Below, in pieces: positions 42,244 through 50,495 of a DNA stretch of 52,123 nt (positions are counted from its first letter, which is position 1; every line of letters starts with the position of its first letter). The DNA comes from Candidatus Hodarchaeota archaeon. GTDB lineage: Archaea; Asgardarchaeota; Heimdallarchaeia; Hodarchaeales; Hodarchaeaceae. A model generated the notes under the pieces. The model had not been told where the DNA came from. It was given only the letters and a program-made list of their open reading frames with translations, and made no database searches. The stretch covers positions 1 through 52,123 of the forward strand of contig JAEOTC010000113.1 in the NCBI GenBank assembly GCA_016840035.1, in the 5' to 3' direction. The translations under genes were made by a program, and so were the position numbers.

Positions 42244-42411
42244 TTATTTGGAATCAAATAGGTCATCCAGTTCAGTCAGGGCATCAGAAATGGAATATCT
42301 AGAAAAAATATTTTCTCCTTGAATAATTTGAGTAATAATTGATTTCTGTGAGTCAGTCATCGATTGAGTTAATTCTTCGAGAATTTTTGCACCATCAATT
42401 GGATCATTCAT
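42244..42411 (-). CDS. Small acidic protein, 55 aa, absent from the supplied ORF track
   Basis: MNDPIDGAKILEELTQSMTDSQKSIITQIIQGENIFSRYSISDALTELDDLFDSK; GAGGT RBS; TTTATAAA box at 42479-42486. Confidence 0.65.
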   Translation of the reverse strand: MNDPIDGAKILEELTQSMTDSQKSIITQIIQGENIFSRYSISDALTELDDLFDSK

Positions 42412-42674: not shown

Positions 42675-45071
42675 TTATGTTCGGATCATTTTTGGGGTGT
42701 TGTCTAGGAAAATTTCCTTTGTTAGGACATGATAATGTCTTATTTTTTCGGTTTGTCTGATAATATCGGGTATAGGGGTGTTTTTAATTGATTCTAAAAC
42801 TGAATGGATCTTTTCTTCAGTTTTCATAATACTAAATTGGTTTTGATTTATTATCTCCTTAATATCATTGGTTGGAGAAAGAAGAGTCTCAATACTTTGA
42901 GTAATTTCGATTTTTTGGAGTAAGGAATCCAATAGTTCATGAAAATCTACCTTTACACTAGTAAATAATTCTGGAAGATATAATTGGTAAACCATATGCT
43001 CTGCTACTCTTTGAAGAAATTTCAATTCTATTTTGTAAGATAATCCAGCATTTAATGATTGTAGCTGAGTTAAAAACGAAATGTATTGTCCTAATATTTT
43101 CCATTGCTCTTCATATAACTGGGGATATTTTATTGGAATCATTTTTGTATAATATTTATGTAAATAGACAGTAAGGTGAGAATAATTCAAGATGTACCGT
43201 TTTAATAAATAATTGATTAAAGAAGAATTCAAAATAATCATTAAAGGAAAAAAATCGTAGTTGGGATTGGTTACTTCCATTATAGAAACATTCGTTCCAG
43301 GTATGAACCCTTTTGGTTTATAAGCAACTCGGAATTCATTACCAATAGCCGTACAGATAAGTTTTGGACGAATTAAATATTCTTTAAATCGTTCATTTGT
43401 GTGGTTAGCCTTGGACCAATGGAAAAAGTCAGGTTTCAGAGCATAGCGTGACACACATTTCCCTGAATGAAGAAAGGGGATTGAATAATCGGTTGATGGT
43501 GAAAATTTGCGTTTTAGGTCCTTTTTAACAATTCTATGATCAATACCGTAATCACCCATAATTTGAGAAAATTCACAGTTCTGGACGATTTGTTGCCATT
43601 TTTCATCATAATATATCATATATCGCTTGTACTGTTTGAAAACTTGCTTATTAATTGGGGAAATTGGTTTCAAACCGTTTCTAGGTTTAATAGAGATAAA
43701 TTGATTATTTTTCTGGCTCTTTGTTAGGATTAGTGAACACATTTCTAAAGTAACATCTTCAAAGGCCGCCGATTCATCATGAATCTCATCTATATTCATA
43801 TTTTCGAGAATAAACTCTCTTATCCCTTCAAACTCTTCTACTCTAAGAATAGAAAACGGAAGAATAAATGCCATACGCCCGTCTGGTTTCAAGAGAGAGA
43901 TAGCCCGTTCAATAAATGCACCTGCTGAGTTCAAACTCATCTTCTTAGCAGCTCTTCCTTTACAAGAACTGTAGGATAATTTAATAATTTTCTTTTCATC
44001 TGGAAGTAAAACAGAACGGCCGTAGGGAGGATTGCCTAGGCAAATATCAAAACCCCCCTCTGGGATTATTTCAGGATAATTAGAGGCCCAATGAAAAAAT
44101 TCAACTACTGAGGGGTCTAATTTATCAAGAAACTTCTTGTTTGAAGCTTTTTCTGGTATAGAGGATAAATATTGAAGATATTTCATATCGAGGTTTTGTG
44201 TGAGTTCAAAATCATAATCCTCACTTATAAATCCAAAAAGAGAGTTCCCTCTCTGGATATTTGAAAAAACTTGAGAACCATTACCTATTTGGAAATCAGG
44301 TTCTTTATCCAAAAGCCAGAACAATAATCGTAATTTAGTTACCAGAGTACCTAGATCCGATTTGTCTACTCCAAAAATAGAGTTCTGAATAATTGTGGAT
44401 ACTCTTATTTCCGTTTTATTCTTATTTTTCTGCAGATTTTGAAAAATTCTTTCTGCTGCATAAACTAAAAATGAACCAGTGCCACAGCTAGGGTCAAGTA
44501 CCCTAGCTGAAGTGTTATCTGTTGTTAAAAGTCTGTCAGTTAGTTCTCGAATAATCTTCCATGGCGAATAGTAGACTCCCTTTACCTTACGATTTGAAAC
44601 TTTAGGTGTTAAGGAAAAATCCTGTTCAAACTCGTTGATAACCATTTCTGCCAATATTGATAGAAATTCAGGTGATATCCTCTCATCCCTATCCCAAGGT
44701 TGTTGAAATTTTTCCACAAGAGTAAAAGTATATTGGCTTATTTGCTTAATTAGAGTCTGCCAATAATCATTAGAAATGTATTTGATTAGTCTTATCTCAT
44801 CAATGGATAAAAGGATCATATGGGGAAATGTATTCTCCGTTTCTGAAATTTTTTTTTCTTTAGTAAACTCATTCGATGATCTAATCCATTGTTTAAACAC
44901 AGCTTCTATATTCTTATTTTCAGGATAAGATCTAAAATAAAATAGAGCAAGAAATTTAAGGTTTGCACTCAAAGCCACGTTGAAAATTGTTGTATCAGAC
45001 CATTCTTGACTCTGTCCTCCTTGAAGAAGTAATACATAAAGGTCTTTTAGTTTTTGAGATAATTGTATCAA
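42675..45071 (-). CDS. Gamma-class N6-adenine DNA methyltransferase with TaqI-like C-terminal TRD, no recognisable nuclease domain
   Basis: KGVYYSP, VLDPSCGTGSFL, GNSL, FHW, GFDICLGNPPYG, AFEDV, PKLI, ILNSSL. Confidence 0.88.
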   Translation of the reverse strand: MIQLSQKLKDLYVLLLQGGQSQEWSDTTIFNVALSANLKFLALFYFRSYPENKNIEAVFKQWIRSSNEFTKEKKISETENTFPHMILLSIDEIRLIKYISNDYWQTLIKQISQYTFTLVEKFQQPWDRDERISPEFLSILAEMVINEFEQDFSLTPKVSNRKVKGVYYSPWKIIRELTDRLLTTDNTSARVLDPSCGTGSFLVYAAERIFQNLQKNKNKTEIRVSTIIQNSIFGVDKSDLGTLVTKLRLLFWLLDKEPDFQIGNGSQVFSNIQRGNSLFGFISEDYDFELTQNLDMKYLQYLSSIPEKASNKKFLDKLDPSVVEFFHWASNYPEIIPEGGFDICLGNPPYGRSVLLPDEKKIIKLSYSSCKGRAAKKMSLNSAGAFIERAISLLKPDGRMAFILPFSILRVEEFEGIREFILENMNIDEIHDESAAFEDVTLEMCSLILTKSQKNNQFISIKPRNGLKPISPINKQVFKQYKRYMIYYDEKWQQIVQNCEFSQIMGDYGIDHRIVKKDLKRKFSPSTDYSIPFLHSGKCVSRYALKPDFFHWSKANHTNERFKEYLIRPKLICTAIGNEFRVAYKPKGFIPGTNVSIMEVTNPNYDFFPLMIILNSSLINYLLKRYILNYSHLTVYLHKYYTKMIPIKYPQLYEEQWKILGQYISFLTQLQSLNAGLSYKIELKFLQRVAEHMVYQLYLPELFTSVKVDFHELLDSLLQKIEITQSIETLLSPTNDIKEIINQNQFSIMKTEEKIHSVLESIKNTPIPDIIRQTEKIRHYHVLTKEIFLDNTPKMIRT

Positions 45072-45104
45072 AGATCATCTCTCAGATTGTTTGGTCAACC
45101 AATG

Positions 45105-45130
45105 AAAGATATTAAAGGTTTTAATATTTC
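45105..45130. promoter_or_regulatory. Symmetric divergent promoter/operator between the methyltransferase and the CCA-kinase operon
   Basis: ATATTAAA-ggt-TTTAATAT inverted repeat (45109-45127) flanked by GAAA on both strands; GAGGTG RBS at 45155-45160. Confidence 0.55.
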
Positions 45131-45165
45131 GACTCATAAGTCTGGAAATACATAGAGGTGCAATC

Positions 45166-47130
45166 ATGGAATTATCCCCAAACCGATTTCCAACAGGAAT
45201 TCTTGAGGTCTGTCATATTTTTCGCGACTCAGGCTTCCAAGCTTTTGTCGTTGGAGGGTCCATTCGTGATCTTCTTCGGGGAGAAAATCTACCAAATGAT
45301 TGGGATATTGCCACTGATGCATCTCCACCTAAAGTTATAGAGCTATTTAGTCAATTTCGGGTAATTCCGACAGGCATACAACACGGGACTGTTACCCTTC
45401 TTTTTAAAAATCTTTCAATCGAGATTACTACTTTTCGTGTCGAAGGAGAATATAAAGATGGACGACGCCCATCAGAAGTTCATTTTGTAAAAGAGATAGA
45501 GGAGGATTTAGCTCGACGTGATCTCACAATAAATGCGATTGCCTATGATCCTATTAATCAATCTTTAACTGATCCTTTCAAGGGTGTTACCGATCTTCAG
45601 AATAATATCTTACGTTTAGTAGGTGATGCTGATACCCGTTTGAAAGAGGATGGACTTCGATTAATTAGAATATTCAGATTTGTTTCTCAATTGGGCTTTT
45701 CTGTTGATCAAAAGTCCCTTGATGCGGTTCCTAGGCAAGTAACTGTCTTCAGACAGGTTGCGAAAGAGCGTATTGAGGTTGAATTCCATAAATTAATGAG
45801 TGGACCTTTTTGGCAACAGGCCATCAAAATGATGATTCCAAATAATCTGCTAGCAAACTATATACCTGAACTTTTCGAAAAATATATGCTTGCTTTAATG
45901 GAATCGGTCCACAATGATCGCTTAGGAATTACTATTTCTATTATTGAGAGTTTTTCTCCTGAATCATCAATCAATCTCCGTTATGCTGCTCTATTTCATC
46001 AATTATCAGCTACATCTCATCCAAAGGATACTTTCCCTGAAATAGATAAACAATTCTTGGCCAAGATCTTAAGAGGGTTAAAATTTCCAAATAAGAGGAT
46101 AGACAGCATTCTACATCTTCTTACTGTATATAAGATCCCTTTACCATACTCTATGAATGATGAGGAGGAGAGGAGGAATTATTCTCTCAGAAAATTCCTT
46201 TATAAGATCAATCCACATTTTCTTGATGATTATCTATCATTTTACAAGGCAATGTGGAAAGAGCTAGATCGTTCAGGGTTACCTAGTGTGTTAATAGAGG
46301 ATATAGAGAGAAGAAGGGAATCTCAACCTCCTATATATCTAAAAGACTTAAAAATTGATGGAAACGAAGTTGTATCCCATTTAAACATAAAAAAATCAAT
46401 CCCTGCTCAACGGGAATTTATTGGGATATGTTTAGACCTATTACGAGAACAAGTCGAGGTGGATCTGTCTAATAATACGAAATATAAGCTTTATCAAATT
46501 TTAGAAAACATTAATCAGGTTAAAAACCTGTGTACCGCACTAAAAGTCCCCAGGGTCAGTATAATTTCTACTGATCACATTCGAAAACTCTATCGAGGGA
46601 ATGAACCTGAATATATTTCTTGGGAAAACAGTCACACTTATCGTCTCTCAATCTGGTTAGTATCATGTCTTCTTCGACGTAACAAATCGAATATTGTCAT
46701 TTTTGATGGTACAAATCTGAATTCTCCCTCACATCCGTATCATAGGGAAAAACTAGCAACAAAATTCAAAAGATACAATCCGATCTTCATCAATACTTTT
46801 TCATCAGAGGATGACCTTAAGAAGAATTTAGAGGCTAGAGAGCATGAAAAACCATCAATTAGAAAAAGTGATGCAGATATTACAATCTATGAACGGTATG
46901 AATCGATAATTAACCGTTACCCGAAGTCATTTTATGCACCAGAAAATGTTAAAATTATTGAATTATCCACCAGATCAACTGAATACGAAAAAAGGCTTAA
47001 AGATCTCAGTAAAAATCTTAAGGAGAGTAATCATCGTCTGATTATTATGAGTGGGAATGTCCTTACTGGGAAAACATTCACTGCAAGAAAGATCCAGCAG
47101 ATATTAAGCACACATTCTTTGAAAGAATGA
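45166..47130 (+). CDS. cca: Class II CCA tRNA nucleotidyltransferase fused to a circularly permuted P-loop (AAA_33/PNK-like) kinase
   Basis: VGGSIRD..DWDIAT, EITTFRVE, EDLARRDLTINA, EDGLR, KERI. C-terminal STDHIRK, VIFDGTN, SDAD and terminal LIIMSGNVLTGKT. Confidence 0.88.
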   Translation: MELSPNRFPTGILEVCHIFRDSGFQAFVVGGSIRDLLRGENLPNDWDIATDASPPKVIELFSQFRVIPTGIQHGTVTLLFKNLSIEITTFRVEGEYKDGRRPSEVHFVKEIEEDLARRDLTINAIAYDPINQSLTDPFKGVTDLQNNILRLVGDADTRLKEDGLRLIRIFRFVSQLGFSVDQKSLDAVPRQVTVFRQVAKERIEVEFHKLMSGPFWQQAIKMMIPNNLLANYIPELFEKYMLALMESVHNDRLGITISIIESFSPESSINLRYAALFHQLSATSHPKDTFPEIDKQFLAKILRGLKFPNKRIDSILHLLTVYKIPLPYSMNDEEERRNYSLRKFLYKINPHFLDDYLSFYKAMWKELDRSGLPSVLIEDIERRRESQPPIYLKDLKIDGNEVVSHLNIKKSIPAQREFIGICLDLLREQVEVDLSNNTKYKLYQILENINQVKNLCTALKVPRVSIISTDHIRKLYRGNEPEYISWENSHTYRLSIWLVSCLLRRNKSNIVIFDGTNLNSPSHPYHREKLATKFKRYNPIFINTFSSEDDLKKNLEAREHEKPSIRKSDADITIYERYESIINRYPKSFYAPENVKIIELSTRSTEYEKRLKDLSKNLKESNHRLIIMSGNVLTGKTFTARKIQQILSTHSLKE

Positions 47131-47154
47131 TAATCATCGTTTGGGGAACCACCT

Positions 47155-48879
47155 GTGGTAATCACTCAACGTGAAAAGGGGCAATATTTCACTCCTGATA
47201 ATGTTGTACGTGCGATTATAACCAGTATCAGTGTATATCTAAAAGAGAAGGAATCTAATTCCACGTTACGTGTGTTAGACCCATCAGTTGGAGAAGGAAT
47301 TTTCTGCAATCTTCTTATACAGTTGTTGAGTAAGAAGTTTTCCTTTATTTCGATAGATGCCCTTGATATCGACTCTGAAGCTCTGTCAAAGGCACAATCT
47401 TTAGTGAATCGGACATTGGATGATAAAAATCATACTTCTACATTTCATCAAAAAAATTTCTTAACAGAATTTGATATAGAGAATAAAGAAGAAAAATATG
47501 ATCTAATCATATCTAATCCTCCCCATAATGCAAAATATCCTCCTTGGGAATGGGACAACATACTGAAAACGGTTTCTTATGAAATTCCTCAAAAAATCCC
47601 TAAAGAATCAGCACTCTATTTCTTTATTAAATCACTCGACTTATTGAAAGATGGTGGAATTCTTTCTTTTATTTTACCCAAGCCGTTCATTTACTCAAAT
47701 AAATGGAAAGTATTTCGAGAAATATGTACTAAACGGGTTCGTCTACTAGAGGTATATGATATAGGTAATCAGTTCTCAGGTCAACTTCAAGAGCAGGTTG
47801 TAATTTCTATTCAAAATTTAACCCCTACTAATGATTTTAAAACGGGGATTTGGGATAAGATTAAAGAGGAATTTTCTTCTAGATCAAGCGTTAAGTCTGA
47901 AAATGCTATTCGATTTGATAATTTTTTAGTTGGTATCACCCCAATAGAACAGAATCTAATGGAAAAGCTTATTAAAAACAATCAGGTTATTGAATGGGAA
48001 GCTTTTCGTGGATTAAACAGTAAATACCGTAATAAAACCTCTTCCATCCCATTAGTTGAGAAAGCTACAGTTACTCATGGTTTTTTACTTCCTGAACGGA
48101 ATTATGTAGATAAAGACGTTCCAAACAGACAATTAGAAAGATTAGCACGCCCAAAAATAATTGCTCAACGAATTCTAACTTATACAACAACACCAAAGTT
48201 CCGATTTAATGTACCTATCTTGGTCGATAGTATAGGGAATCTCATCACACATGAGACGATTATCAATATATTCCCTCCTAATTCAACCATTCAGGATCTT
48301 TACTCATACGGAGCAATCCTTCAGTCTAAATTCACCGTTTGGTGGTTAAAACACGCTATTTATACAAAACAATTTGTCACTAGTAAAGATTTTGATAGAC
48401 CCTATTTAAATAAGGTTTTAATACCTTCTATAGACGGTTCTGTTAATCATACGTTTCGTAATGGACTAAATTCCCTTTTACATGAAGGGAATCTTCATTC
48501 AATAATTTCTCTTGCCAATAAAGAGTCGAAAGTAGATCAATTTTTTGCTCTAGGTAGAATCTTTAAGTATTATCTAATGAAAGGAGAAGAGATTCGATTG
48601 TTGCTTGATCAGATCCTTCAATTATCCTCTCAACGTACCAATATTTCACAGCATAACTTAATGAAAAGGATTGATCGAGATTTTCGTACTAGAGATGATG
48701 TGAGTTATATCTGGTTAAATACTAAATATGGGCTTACGTTTAGTGATTCCATTGTATCTGAGCTTAAGACAAAATATCTTGACCTCGCGAACATTAGAAA
48801 CGAGATCGATATACTTGTGATTATGTTATATGGATTAACAGAGGAAGAGGAAAGAATTATCGTTGAGGGAGACCAATGA
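47155..48879 (+). CDS. Gamma-class N6-adenine DNA methyltransferase, TaqI-like, with variant motif IV (NPPH)
   Basis: KGQYFTP, VLDPSVGEGIF, DLIISNPPH, LKDGGILSFILP, PKIIAQRI. Confidence 0.85.
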   Translation: MVITQREKGQYFTPDNVVRAIITSISVYLKEKESNSTLRVLDPSVGEGIFCNLLIQLLSKKFSFISIDALDIDSEALSKAQSLVNRTLDDKNHTSTFHQKNFLTEFDIENKEEKYDLIISNPPHNAKYPPWEWDNILKTVSYEIPQKIPKESALYFFIKSLDLLKDGGILSFILPKPFIYSNKWKVFREICTKRVRLLEVYDIGNQFSGQLQEQVVISIQNLTPTNDFKTGIWDKIKEEFSSRSSVKSENAIRFDNFLVGITPIEQNLMEKLIKNNQVIEWEAFRGLNSKYRNKTSSIPLVEKATVTHGFLLPERNYVDKDVPNRQLERLARPKIIAQRILTYTTTPKFRFNVPILVDSIGNLITHETIINIFPPNSTIQDLYSYGAILQSKFTVWWLKHAIYTKQFVTSKDFDRPYLNKVLIPSIDGSVNHTFRNGLNSLLHEGNLHSIISLANKESKVDQFFALGRIFKYYLMKGEEIRLLLDQILQLSSQRTNISQHNLMKRIDRDFRTRDDVSYIWLNTKYGLTFSDSIVSELKTKYLDLANIRNEIDILVIMLYGLTEEEERIIVEGDQ

Positions 48880-50495
48880 AGACGAGTAAGATTAAAGAAC
48901 CGTTAGGTGCGATTCCAACACCGAAATCTATAGTAAAGATAATGGTTGATCTTTCTTATGAATTTATCACGCATTTTTTACAGGAAAGTACAACTTCCAA
49001 CAGTATGTACGTACTTGATAACTCAGTAGGGGATGGCCGATTCCTATTTGGAATTGTCGAGAAATGGAACACTATTACTGAAATTAATCGCCGAGGATGT
49101 AAATTAGTTTTACATGGTTTAGATATTAATAAGGATTCAATAACTAAATGTAAAACAGATAGGAACAATTTTTCAGATATAAAGGGCATTGAAATATCAT
49201 TTAAAACTGGAAACGCATTAATTGGATATGTTAAACCAGTAAAGATAAACGAAAAGGAAATTGTCGATGAAAATTTGACTGAATCTTATTTTAACAAAAT
49301 AGATCAGAGTTTGCAAAATCTTAATCTAAAGAAATCTGTGTTTCATTGGTTCTATGAGTGGTCAAAGCCGAACTCCAAGGATGGATATCATATTTGTATA
49401 GGAAATCCTCCCTTTGGAATTAAATTCTCTTCTGAAGAGAAAAATATCTTCAAACGAATGTATCAAGGTGTTGATCCAGAAGTTGAAAGCTACCTATTAT
49501 TCGTTGAACGTTCGATAAGTCTTTTACGAGAAGGAGGATTAATAATCTTTCTTATTCCGAATAATTTTACAACCAACTATCGTTATGAAGAATTTCGAAA
49601 ATTTCTTCTTCAAAACCTCAGTATCAAAAGAATCATTATGTTGGGAAGCAATGTGTTTCCTACTGTTTCAGTTGAAACTTGTATTCTTATTGGTTATAAG
49701 GAACCTCATGCAAAGAAAAGTTCTACTAATTTTATAGAATTTAGTAATTACTCACTAGAGAAAGGCTTCTCTTCTATTCAAATTAGTGACCAAAATTTTA
49801 TTCTGAATCAGGAGTTCAAGTATATTGTTCCAGATATGTCGACTGAAATTTCTGGTATTCTCAAAACTATCGAAGAAAATTCTATACCATTAGCAGATAT
49901 TGCCTCTATCTCTCGTGGGATTGAACTAGGATTTCAATCAGAATTGACAAGTGATGAACCGACTTCTACACAATCGGTGCCCTTGATAGCTGGAAGAAAC
50001 ATCGAAAAATTTCTGATCAAAGGAAAATATCGGTATATTGATTATGATTCAAATCAAAAATCCATTTTTAAAAATAAATCGTTGTATAAACAACCTAAAA
50101 TCTTACTTCGAAGAATTGGTCATGAGTTAATTGCAGCATTGGATCCTAATGAACTTTTTTGTGTTTGTGATGTGTATATTATCACACTTAAACCACAATG
50201 GTCTCATGTTCCACTAAAACATCTAGAAATAATTCTAAATTCCCCCCTTCTTACTTTTTACCTAAATCATAAATTTAAAACAGTTAAAAAGATTTTTCCT
50301 AAAATTCCGATTAGTTATTTAAAACAACTTCCAATTAAATTACCATTTTCACCAAAAGAAGAGAGCTTAATTCAAAATATTAGGAAGGAACTTAAATTCT
50401 TAGAGAAGGAGTCATTTAACTCTTTGAACGAACTAATATTTCGAGTGTATAGAATTACTAAATCTCAAAAAACGATTGTAGAGTCAGCTCAGTAG
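48876..50495 (+). CDS. Gamma-class N6-adenine DNA methyltransferase with TaqI-like C-terminal TRD
   Basis: LGAIPTP, VLDNSVGDGRF, GNAL, FHW, IGNPPFG, VFPTVSVETCI, PKILLRRIG, LNSPL; ATGA overlap with the upstream gene. Confidence 0.87.
   Translation: MKTSKIKEPLGAIPTPKSIVKIMVDLSYEFITHFLQESTTSNSMYVLDNSVGDGRFLFGIVEKWNTITEINRRGCKLVLHGLDINKDSITKCKTDRNNFSDIKGIEISFKTGNALIGYVKPVKINEKEIVDENLTESYFNKIDQSLQNLNLKKSVFHWFYEWSKPNSKDGYHICIGNPPFGIKFSSEEKNIFKRMYQGVDPEVESYLLFVERSISLLREGGLIIFLIPNNFTTNYRYEEFRKFLLQNLSIKRIIMLGSNVFPTVSVETCILIGYKEPHAKKSSTNFIEFSNYSLEKGFSSIQISDQNFILNQEFKYIVPDMSTEISGILKTIEENSIPLADIASISRGIELGFQSELTSDEPTSTQSVPLIAGRNIEKFLIKGKYRYIDYDSNQKSIFKNKSLYKQPKILLRRIGHELIAALDPNELFCVCDVYIITLKPQWSHVPLKHLEIILNSPLLTFYLNHKFKTVKKIFPKIPISYLKQLPIKLPFSPKEESLIQNIRKELKFLEKESFNSLNELIFRVYRITKSQKTIVESAQ

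Follow-up and report, generated by a model that had tools for sequence, protein, structure and literature searches.

Genetic organization of the locus

The contig JAEOTC010000113.1 of a Candidatus Hodarchaeota archaeon (assembly GCA_016840035.1), analysed here over positions 1 to 52,123 of its forward strand (the 52,123-nucleotide window), carries a compact block of four genes at positions 42675-50495, in which a tRNA enzyme is surrounded by DNA-type adenine methylases. The central gene, designated CCAK (45166-47130, forward strand), encodes a 654-amino-acid (aa) protein in which a CCA-adding enzyme is fused to a kinase. On one side lies the divergently oriented MTA (42675-45071, reverse strand; 798 aa), encoding a gamma-class N6-adenine DNA methyltransferase, and on the other side, in the orientation of CCAK, are MTB (47155-48879, forward strand; 574 aa), encoding an M.BseCI/CamA-like N6-adenine DNA methyltransferase, and MTC (48876-50495, forward strand; 539 aa), an optional member of the block encoding an M.TaqI-like enzyme of the same activity class. 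As read directly from the sequence, MTA and CCAK are separated by a divergent intergenic region of 94 bp (45072-45165). The gap between CCAK and MTB is 24 bp, and MTB and MTC overlap by the 4 nt ATGA. A preliminary description of this DNA, made from the sequence alone, had given the same open reading frame (ORF) coordinates and junctions, which matched exactly on re-reading. It offered two possible interpretations, a methylation-linked defence or counter-defence module with a tRNA-healing enzyme in the effector position, or an orphan-methylome cluster co-regulated with tRNA maintenance.

Conservation of a core triad in Hodarchaeales

Synteny was analysed in 15 related genome loci and 5 metagenome loci, with counts referring to loci long enough to show the neighbouring genes. 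The divergent MTA-CCAK pair and the downstream MTB were intact in 15 of the 15 genome loci and in all 5 metagenome loci, with CCAK identities of 42-64%. The median distance between CCAK and MTB is about 22 bp, and the two genes overlap in several loci. The four genes form a genuine block, of which the core triad MTA, CCAK and MTB is kept together. Indirect support for co-location came from about 24 further CCAK clusters, for which MTA or MTB was found on a contig of equal size. The preliminary description had named two observations that would reduce the block to an ordinary or decayed restriction-modification (R-M) cluster, namely CCAK homologues standing without methylase neighbours in most relatives, or a cognate endonuclease. 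Neither was made, since CCAK never occurred without MTA and MTB in any sufficiently long locus and no nuclease was detected (see below).

Around this triad, gene content varies by clade. Neighbours on the outer MTA side include PALP, o37601, CheB or CheR, and those on the outer MTB side an F420 oxidoreductase, MTC or a gene with a nucleotidyltransferase (NTase) fold, so that the block, which is single-copy, is flanked by metabolic and chemotaxis genes. MTC was present only in the clade of the window, in the clade of loci L043, L135 and L136, and in genome G006. As for genomes apparently lacking the block, the contig of G006 ends within it, G004 is devoid of the whole flanking region, and the others belong to a deeper clade; these absences are therefore uninformative as to whether the block is a module.

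Database searches pointed to the same narrow distribution. MTA and MTB orthologues are confined to CCAK-carrying genomes and separated by a sharp E-value gap from anything else. The database relatives of MTB were orthologues in 52 of 52 cases (E<=1e-88), and those of MTA formed about 55 orthologue clusters, all from Hodarchaeales-type metagenome-assembled genomes (MAGs). Past these MTA orthologues, similarity drops to bacterial Type IIG enzymes of 25-27% identity that carry a PF04313 nuclease.

CCAK combines a class II CCA-adding enzyme with a permuted kinase

By both motifs and fold, residues 1 to about 450 of CCAK (45166-46512, forward strand) are a complete class II CCA-adding enzyme. Pfam searches recovered a PolyA_pol head (1.6e-35) and RNA-binding domains, and residues 15-413 matched the Bacillus-type CCA model PRK13299 (4.2e-79) with a score of 266 bits, just under the 290-bit cut-off. 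Head, neck, body and tail are all present, with the motifs GGSIRD, DWD, RRD, EDGLR and ERIxxE, and the class II catalytic motifs A-E are readable in the translation. The AF2 model of CCAK (pLDDT 89.8) resembled the enzyme of Geobacillus stearothermophilus (1miv), with a Foldseek TM of 0.84 and a VIA Z of 31.2 (root-mean-square deviation 3.1 over 391 aligned residues, 30% identity). CCAK thus shares the full head-neck-body-tail fold and the catalytic motifs with class II CCA enzymes, and it differs from these, as from the CCA2 paralogues of Hodarchaeales, by an additional 205-aa permuted kinase.

Hodarchaeales have been reported to carry only the class II enzyme CCA2, some of them with A and B paralogues, and one Hodarchaeum CCA2 enzyme was found to be active, the paralogue tested not being stated (preprint 10.64898/2026.05.29.728689). 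In agreement with that report, the present genome, 87% complete, yielded no class I CCA enzyme. The terms kinase, methyltransferases and synteny have 0 occurrences each in the preprint, and no description of the CCA-kinase fusion or of its methylase neighbours was found in the literature. A short CCA2 paralogue of 382 aa was co-present in 17 of 17 CCAK genomes, which makes CCAK one of two paralogues. The short paralogue at G000:C193:3959-5107 has a full-length flexible loop and an EDxxR motif, and is located between an isocitrate/isopropylmalate-dehydrogenase-like gene on one side and sirtuin and Nudix genes on the other. More distant class II CCA genes, of 530 aa and devoid of the kinase, have no methylase neighbours. 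When genome contigs were scanned with a full-length alignment keyed on universal head-domain motifs, mostly bacterial CCA enzymes were recovered, together with two Heimdall-type loci.

The C-terminal part of CCAK (about 205 aa; 46513-47130, forward strand) is a circularly permuted P-loop kinase of the AAA_33, PSTK, Kti12 and polynucleotide kinase (PNK) type, and does not follow the canonical order with an N-terminal P-loop. Its motifs succeed one another as TDHIRK, FDGTN and SDAD, with the Walker A motif GNVLTGKT last. Similarly, positions 17-124 of the AAA_33 profile come first and the P-loop, matched by positions 7-42 of the 6PF2K profile, comes last and ends 20 residues before the stop codon. 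GNVLTGKT, TDHIRK and FDGTN show little or no variation across 50 CCAK orthologues, the Walker A motif being invariant. The AAA_33 model scored 25 bits on the isolated kinase domain of the window, just below its 27-bit cut-off, and 31 bits on the orthologue P0033. Structural comparison with VIA identified PSTK (3a4l, Z 7.2), Kti12 (7.1), 6PF2K (7.0) and the Pnkp kinase (4gp6, 6.5) as neighbours, each alignment beginning past the neighbour's own P-loop; these Z values are middling and agree with the sequence evidence.

Three of these neighbours, PSTK, Kti12 and the Pnkp kinase, are enzymes acting on RNA or tRNA. CCAK has in common with PSTK, Kti12 and polynucleotide 5'-kinases (T4 Pnk / CthPnkp, AAA_33) the P-loop kinase fold and the D-x-x-R and DxTN-like motifs, but differs from them in the C-terminal position of its strand-1 / Walker A / helix-1 unit and in having no phosphatase or ligase module. 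When the kinase-domain profile was searched against 1.84 billion representative proteins, strong matches were found solely in the CCA fusion, and this design of the second CCA paralogue was seen nowhere else. The weak matches were ordinary 200-aa AAA_33, KTI12 or Zeta kinases, aligned from their own residue ~45 onward (range ~30-55).

Three gamma-class methylases and no detectable nuclease

Based on Pfam searches, MTA and MTC contain the Eco57I, N6_Mtase and TaqI_C families, and MTB the Eco57I and N6_Mtase families (Eco57I 9.7e-24 in MTA; TaqI_C 1.3e-22 at residues 369-487 of MTC). Although no TaqI_C match was returned for MTB, profile comparison aligned it with MTC across the TaqI_C region of the latter at 99.3% probability. 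Motif I (LDPSxGxG / LDNSVGDG) lies ahead of motif IV in all three proteins, which is the gamma order, and motif IV reads NPPY in MTA, NPPH in MTB and NPPF in MTC. Motif I and NPP(Y/H/F) are intact, and conserved in the orthologues of all three. The gamma motif order and TaqI-like target recognition domains attributed to the three enzymes in the preliminary description were thus borne out by motifs, Pfam and the MTB-MTC profile alignment.

MTA consists of a helical N-terminal domain, a catalytic core (LDPSCGTGSF, GNPPYG), a TaqI-type recognition domain at residues 536-647 and a helical C-terminus. In its AF2 model (pLDDT 69.5), residues 1-150 and 650-798 are all-helical, and Foldseek matches were BrxX/PglX, CamA, MmeI and M.BseCI. 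Comparison of orthologues indicated that the recognition domain is highly conserved and among the best-conserved parts of the protein. MTA of the window has 798 aa, as does a 76%-identical relative, and all other orthologues have 857-873 aa. The two shorter proteins are without an insert of about 70 aa (residues ~285-325) between the motif I-III region and motif IV, a place where model confidence is low. MTB is characterized by the motifs GQYFTP, LDPSVGEGIF and NPPH, the last being present in 14 of 16 orthologues and replaced by NPPY in the other 2 of 16; its orthologue profile matched M.BseCI (4.7e-25) and CamA (2e-18).

Searches of the four proteins, of their unassigned termini and of the flanks found no nuclease, HNH or helicase family, in line with the earlier observation that no PD-(D/E)xK, HNH or helicase effector is apparent in or beside the block. 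A remote or novel nuclease encoded elsewhere in the genome might nevertheless act as partner of the methylases. PADLOC, one of the tools proposed in the preliminary description, returned no match for CCAK and only generic Type II and IIG methylase models for its neighbours. The scores of BREX and MADS models on the methylases were far below the family cut-offs (MAD2, 71 vs 720 bits; PglX, 60 vs 500 bits), and none of the BREX/MADS partner genes (PglZ, BrxC/L, MAD1, MAD3-8) was found in the block or flanks. Viral sequences of IMG/VR contained no relative of the kinase domain and no close relative of the methylases, with only generic matches at 22-35% identity to the latter. A domesticated viral counter-defence cassette was considered and dropped on these grounds.

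The structural neighbours of the methylases, all of which are DNA adenine methylases, bear on the proposal that at least one of these "DNA" methylases acts on tRNA or other RNA, which would turn the block into a tRNA operon for CCA addition, end phosphorylation and N6-methyladenosine (m6A) formation. The strict linkage to a tRNA enzyme with a PSTK/Kti12-like kinase, accompanied in some loci by probable translational coupling, would be expected of such an operon, and the fixity of recognition domains across a deep clade would suit a DNA motif or an unchanging RNA target equally well. MTB also combines its unusual NPPH with weak generic matches to the RlmF and TrmN models. However, these RNA-methylase matches are far below the cut-offs and cover the Rossmann core only, and all significant neighbours in sequence or structure (M.TaqI, M.BseCI, CamA, PglX, MmeI) methylate adenine in DNA and carry TaqI-type domains that read DNA. 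An RNA-directed role is, in our view, quite unlikely.

Vertical inheritance, purifying selection and a single probable replacement event

The trees of CCAK, MTA and MTB recover the same major clades. In close pairs, the ratio of nonsynonymous to synonymous substitution rates (dN/dS) was 0.12-0.24 for CCAK, 0.13-0.21 for MTA, 0.17-0.27 for MTB and 0.18-0.35 for MTC, and 0.05-0.21 for the flanking genes. The block is under purifying selection and vertically inherited. Taken together, the fixed recognition domain of MTA, the low dN/dS values and the concordant clades argue for domesticated methylases of fixed specificity and not for an arms-race locus.

One departure from this pattern was observed in a single pair of close relatives, L032 (G014:C125) and L033 (G002:C94). 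Their flanks, MTC and MTB share 91-98% nucleotide identity, but a 3.9-kb tract (~9.05-12.9 kb in locus coordinates) is only 74% identical. This divergent tract takes in almost the whole of CCAK, the promoter and the first ~615 codons of MTA, and its breakpoints fall in conserved sequence, at the end of the CCAK Walker A motif and at the end of the MTA recognition domain. The CCAK tree places L032 beside L031 (support 0.94), and the MTB tree places it beside L033 (1.0). We read this as one homologous replacement of CCAK plus MTA from another species-level lineage, the alternative being a chimeric MAG contig.

These data also help in evaluating whether the block is a neutral remnant, with methylases left from one or more decayed R-M systems (Type IIG and IIS-like) beside a CCA paralogue to which they have no functional or regulatory link. 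Such an origin would account for the nearest outside relatives of MTA being Type IIG enzymes whose N-terminal PF04313 nuclease is missing from MTA, for the gain or loss of MTC, and for the frequent synteny of flanking housekeeping genes around a block of single origin. Yet the catalytic motifs are intact in all methylases, with dN/dS of 0.13-0.35, and MTA and MTB occur in every sufficiently long locus despite loss or replacement of adjacent genes on both sides. The short or overlapping CCAK-MTB spacing and the restriction of the replaced tract to CCAK and MTA, with both flanks still 91-98% identical, also speak against a passive association, and we regard the remnant scenario as unlikely, albeit worth keeping in mind.

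The replacement event also bears on a conflict system of the kind envisaged in the preliminary description, in which the methylases would mark self or sense foreign DNA and CCAK would serve as an effector or as a healer of tRNA ends cut by viral or competitor tRNases, much as T4 Pnk plus ligase counters PrrC-EcoprrI. Allele replacement of this sort occurs at loci under diversifying selection, and the 74%-identical CCAK-plus-MTA tract lies between relatives that are 91-98% identical in the flanks. The unit never splits, and MTA falls in the IIG / PglX-like branch, members of which serve R-M and BREX. Moreover, repair by CCA enzymes and PNKs is known from phage-host conflicts (PMC7824862). The defence reading rests solely on this linkage, the ancestry of MTA and the single replacement event, for which MAG chimerism is possible. 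Against it stand the vertical inheritance of a single-copy block among housekeeping genes, purifying selection with low dN/dS, and a MTA recognition domain that is conserved and not variable. Neither the PADLOC result for CCAK nor the BREX and MADS scores given above favour it, no nuclease, ligase, anticodon nuclease or helicase was found in the block or flanks, and close relatives are missing from IMG/VR. The proposed defence or counter-defence role is thus not supported, and we consider it decidedly improbable.

Putative domesticated solitary methylases beside a second CCA paralogue

Of the two interpretations initially offered, the second, an orphan-methylome cluster with co-regulation of tRNA maintenance, fits the data better. 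The block may best be described as a clade-specific chromosomal unit of Hodarchaeales, in which domesticated solitary DNA adenine methylases are co-expressed with a second class II CCA paralogue, a reading to which we give an even chance of being correct. MTA would derive from the Type IIG / PglX-like branch, its nuclease being absent, and MTB and the optional MTC would be monomers of the M.BseCI / CamA / M.TaqI type. We infer that their substrate is DNA: each enzyme would flip its target adenine into the NPP(Y/H/F) pocket and transfer a methyl group from S-adenosylmethionine, and methylation at a fixed motif read by the TaqI-type domain would result in a constant lineage methylome. The N-terminal 450 aa of CCAK are expected to bind the acceptor end of tRNA and add or rebuild CCA, and the permuted kinase may transfer phosphate from ATP to a hydroxyl located at the tRNA ends or close to them, either the 5'-OH or a 3'-terminal group. 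MTA and CCAK would share a divergent promoter region of 91-180 bp; this arrangement and the short or overlapping spacing of CCAK and MTB suggest that the genes are probably expressed together.

Several observations weigh against this reading. The NPPH motif of MTB is atypical. Synteny is also partly kept in the wider region (PALP, F420 oxidoreductase, PGM), so that part of the linkage may be inertia, and the block seems to have arisen once, which means that the related genomes are not independent. Finally, it is unusual for two to three solitary methylases to be retained so strictly next to a single tRNA enzyme, and simple co-expression leaves this unexplained.

A further possibility is that the triad is a working unit of an undescribed kind, in which DNA-type adenine methylases are functionally coupled to a tRNA-end enzyme. 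Invading nucleic acids or tRNase toxins might then elicit a response, modification or repair of tRNA ends, that is gated by methylation status; a second form of coupling would be the recruitment of the "DNA" methylases, alongside CCAK, to tRNA modification. Unbroken linkage, probable translational coupling and the lateral replacement of the CCAK-MTA tract are compatible with such a coupled unit, which we nonetheless hold to be just as improbable as the conflict system.

Among known systems, the block resembles solitary methylases. CamA of Clostridioides difficile (7lni), M.BseCI (7qw5) and M.TaqI are gamma-class monomeric N6-adenine methylases with a C-terminal TaqI-type domain, as here, and clade-conserved solitary methylases similarly have no partner nuclease and occupy a fixed locus across a lineage. 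The features of solitary methyltransferases found in this block are the lack of a partner nuclease, lineage-wide orthologues and purifying selection. The block differs in that it keeps two to three distinct methylases side by side, invariably flanking a tRNA enzyme, and in the NPPH motif of MTB. Type IIG/IIL enzymes such as MmeI (5hr4) and the BREX methylase PglX/BrxX (8c45, 9ewz), the nearest relatives of MTA outside the clade, share with it the succession of helical spacer, methylase and recognition domain and an approximate length. Unlike Type IIG/IIL enzymes, MTA is devoid of an N-terminal PF04313 / PD-(D/E)xK nuclease, and in contrast to BREX there is no PglZ, BrxC or BrxL nearby. With regard to R-M systems in general, the block has intact methyltransferases, but no cognate endonuclease was found in the block, termini or flanks, and a fixed locus with concordant clades and a conserved MTA domain is the opposite of a patchy, mobile distribution with variable specificity domains.

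PrrC-EcoprrI, T4 Pnk plus Rnl1 and bacterial Pnkp-Hen1 have a theme in common with the block, either the linkage of an R-M-type methylase to tRNA integrity or the combination of kinase, nucleotidyltransferase and methyltransferase. In contrast to these systems, the methylases here are of the DNA type, and no anticodon nuclease, Type I hsd, RNA ligase or Hen1-type 2'-O-methyltransferase family was found in the block or flanks. To our knowledge, no described system connects genome methylation with tRNA-end maintenance, and the linkage, if functional, would provide such a connection. Even without a functional link, the block would clearly illustrate how R-M-type methylases become domesticated, in Asgard archaea, as epigenetic enzymes that are stable and present throughout a lineage. 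With the block, three candidate enzymes also become available for defining the methylome of this group.

Accessory genes and the divergent spacer

A second, partial copy of the block was detected in the same bin on a 3-kb contig (G000:C190:1-3055, L127), which encodes a CCAK C-terminus 49% identical to that of the window, a MTB homologue (35%) and the start of an NTase-fold gene. This contig is 87% nucleotide-identical to the G013 locus and most likely stems from another species, having been co-binned, rather than representing a paralogue; bin contamination is 4%.

In loci L034-L039 (e.g. L038:4103-7111), the position after MTB is occupied not by MTC but by a gene for a 302-aa protein that is highly conserved, bears a pol-beta nucleotidyltransferase signature (LVGG ... 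DIDG) and has no match in Pfam. Beside it, on the opposite strand, are genes whose products weakly match NTP_transf_5 and a calcineurin-like phosphoesterase. Apart from the co-binned contig, G000 has neither the 302-aa gene nor these neighbours. The 302-aa gene was considered as a hidden restriction enzyme, a possibility rejected on account of its pol-beta NTase signature and the lack of nuclease matches.

Downstream of MTA and on the same strand, a 599-bp gap contains an ORF encoding an acidic 55-aa product (42244-42411, reverse strand), whose membership of the block is uncertain. It matches no Pfam family and has no counterpart in the more distant loci; identity is 78-80% in L031 and L032 and 64% in L133. 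The region gave no hits when scanned with Rfam and for tRNA genes.

The 94-bp spacer between MTA and CCAK contains a perfect 8-bp inverted repeat, ATATTAAA (45109-45116) and TTTAATAT (45120-45127), separated by GGT. Its arms are back-to-back TATA-like boxes, each about 37-38 nt from its own start codon, and GAGGTG is found about 6 nt ahead of the CCAK ATG. The symmetric TATA-like repeat noticed earlier is thus present, though kept only in the three nearest relatives (L031-L033), and an AT-only palindrome of 8 nt within a spacer of 35% GC is weak evidence when taken alone. Across related loci, the divergent spacer measures 91-180 bp. In the distant clade L034-L041 it is without the back-to-back TATA palindrome and has instead a different conserved block of about 40 bp, containing the near-inverted repeat ATAATTAG ... 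CTAATTGT followed by TTAAAAACTTT, which may represent an operator and promoter.

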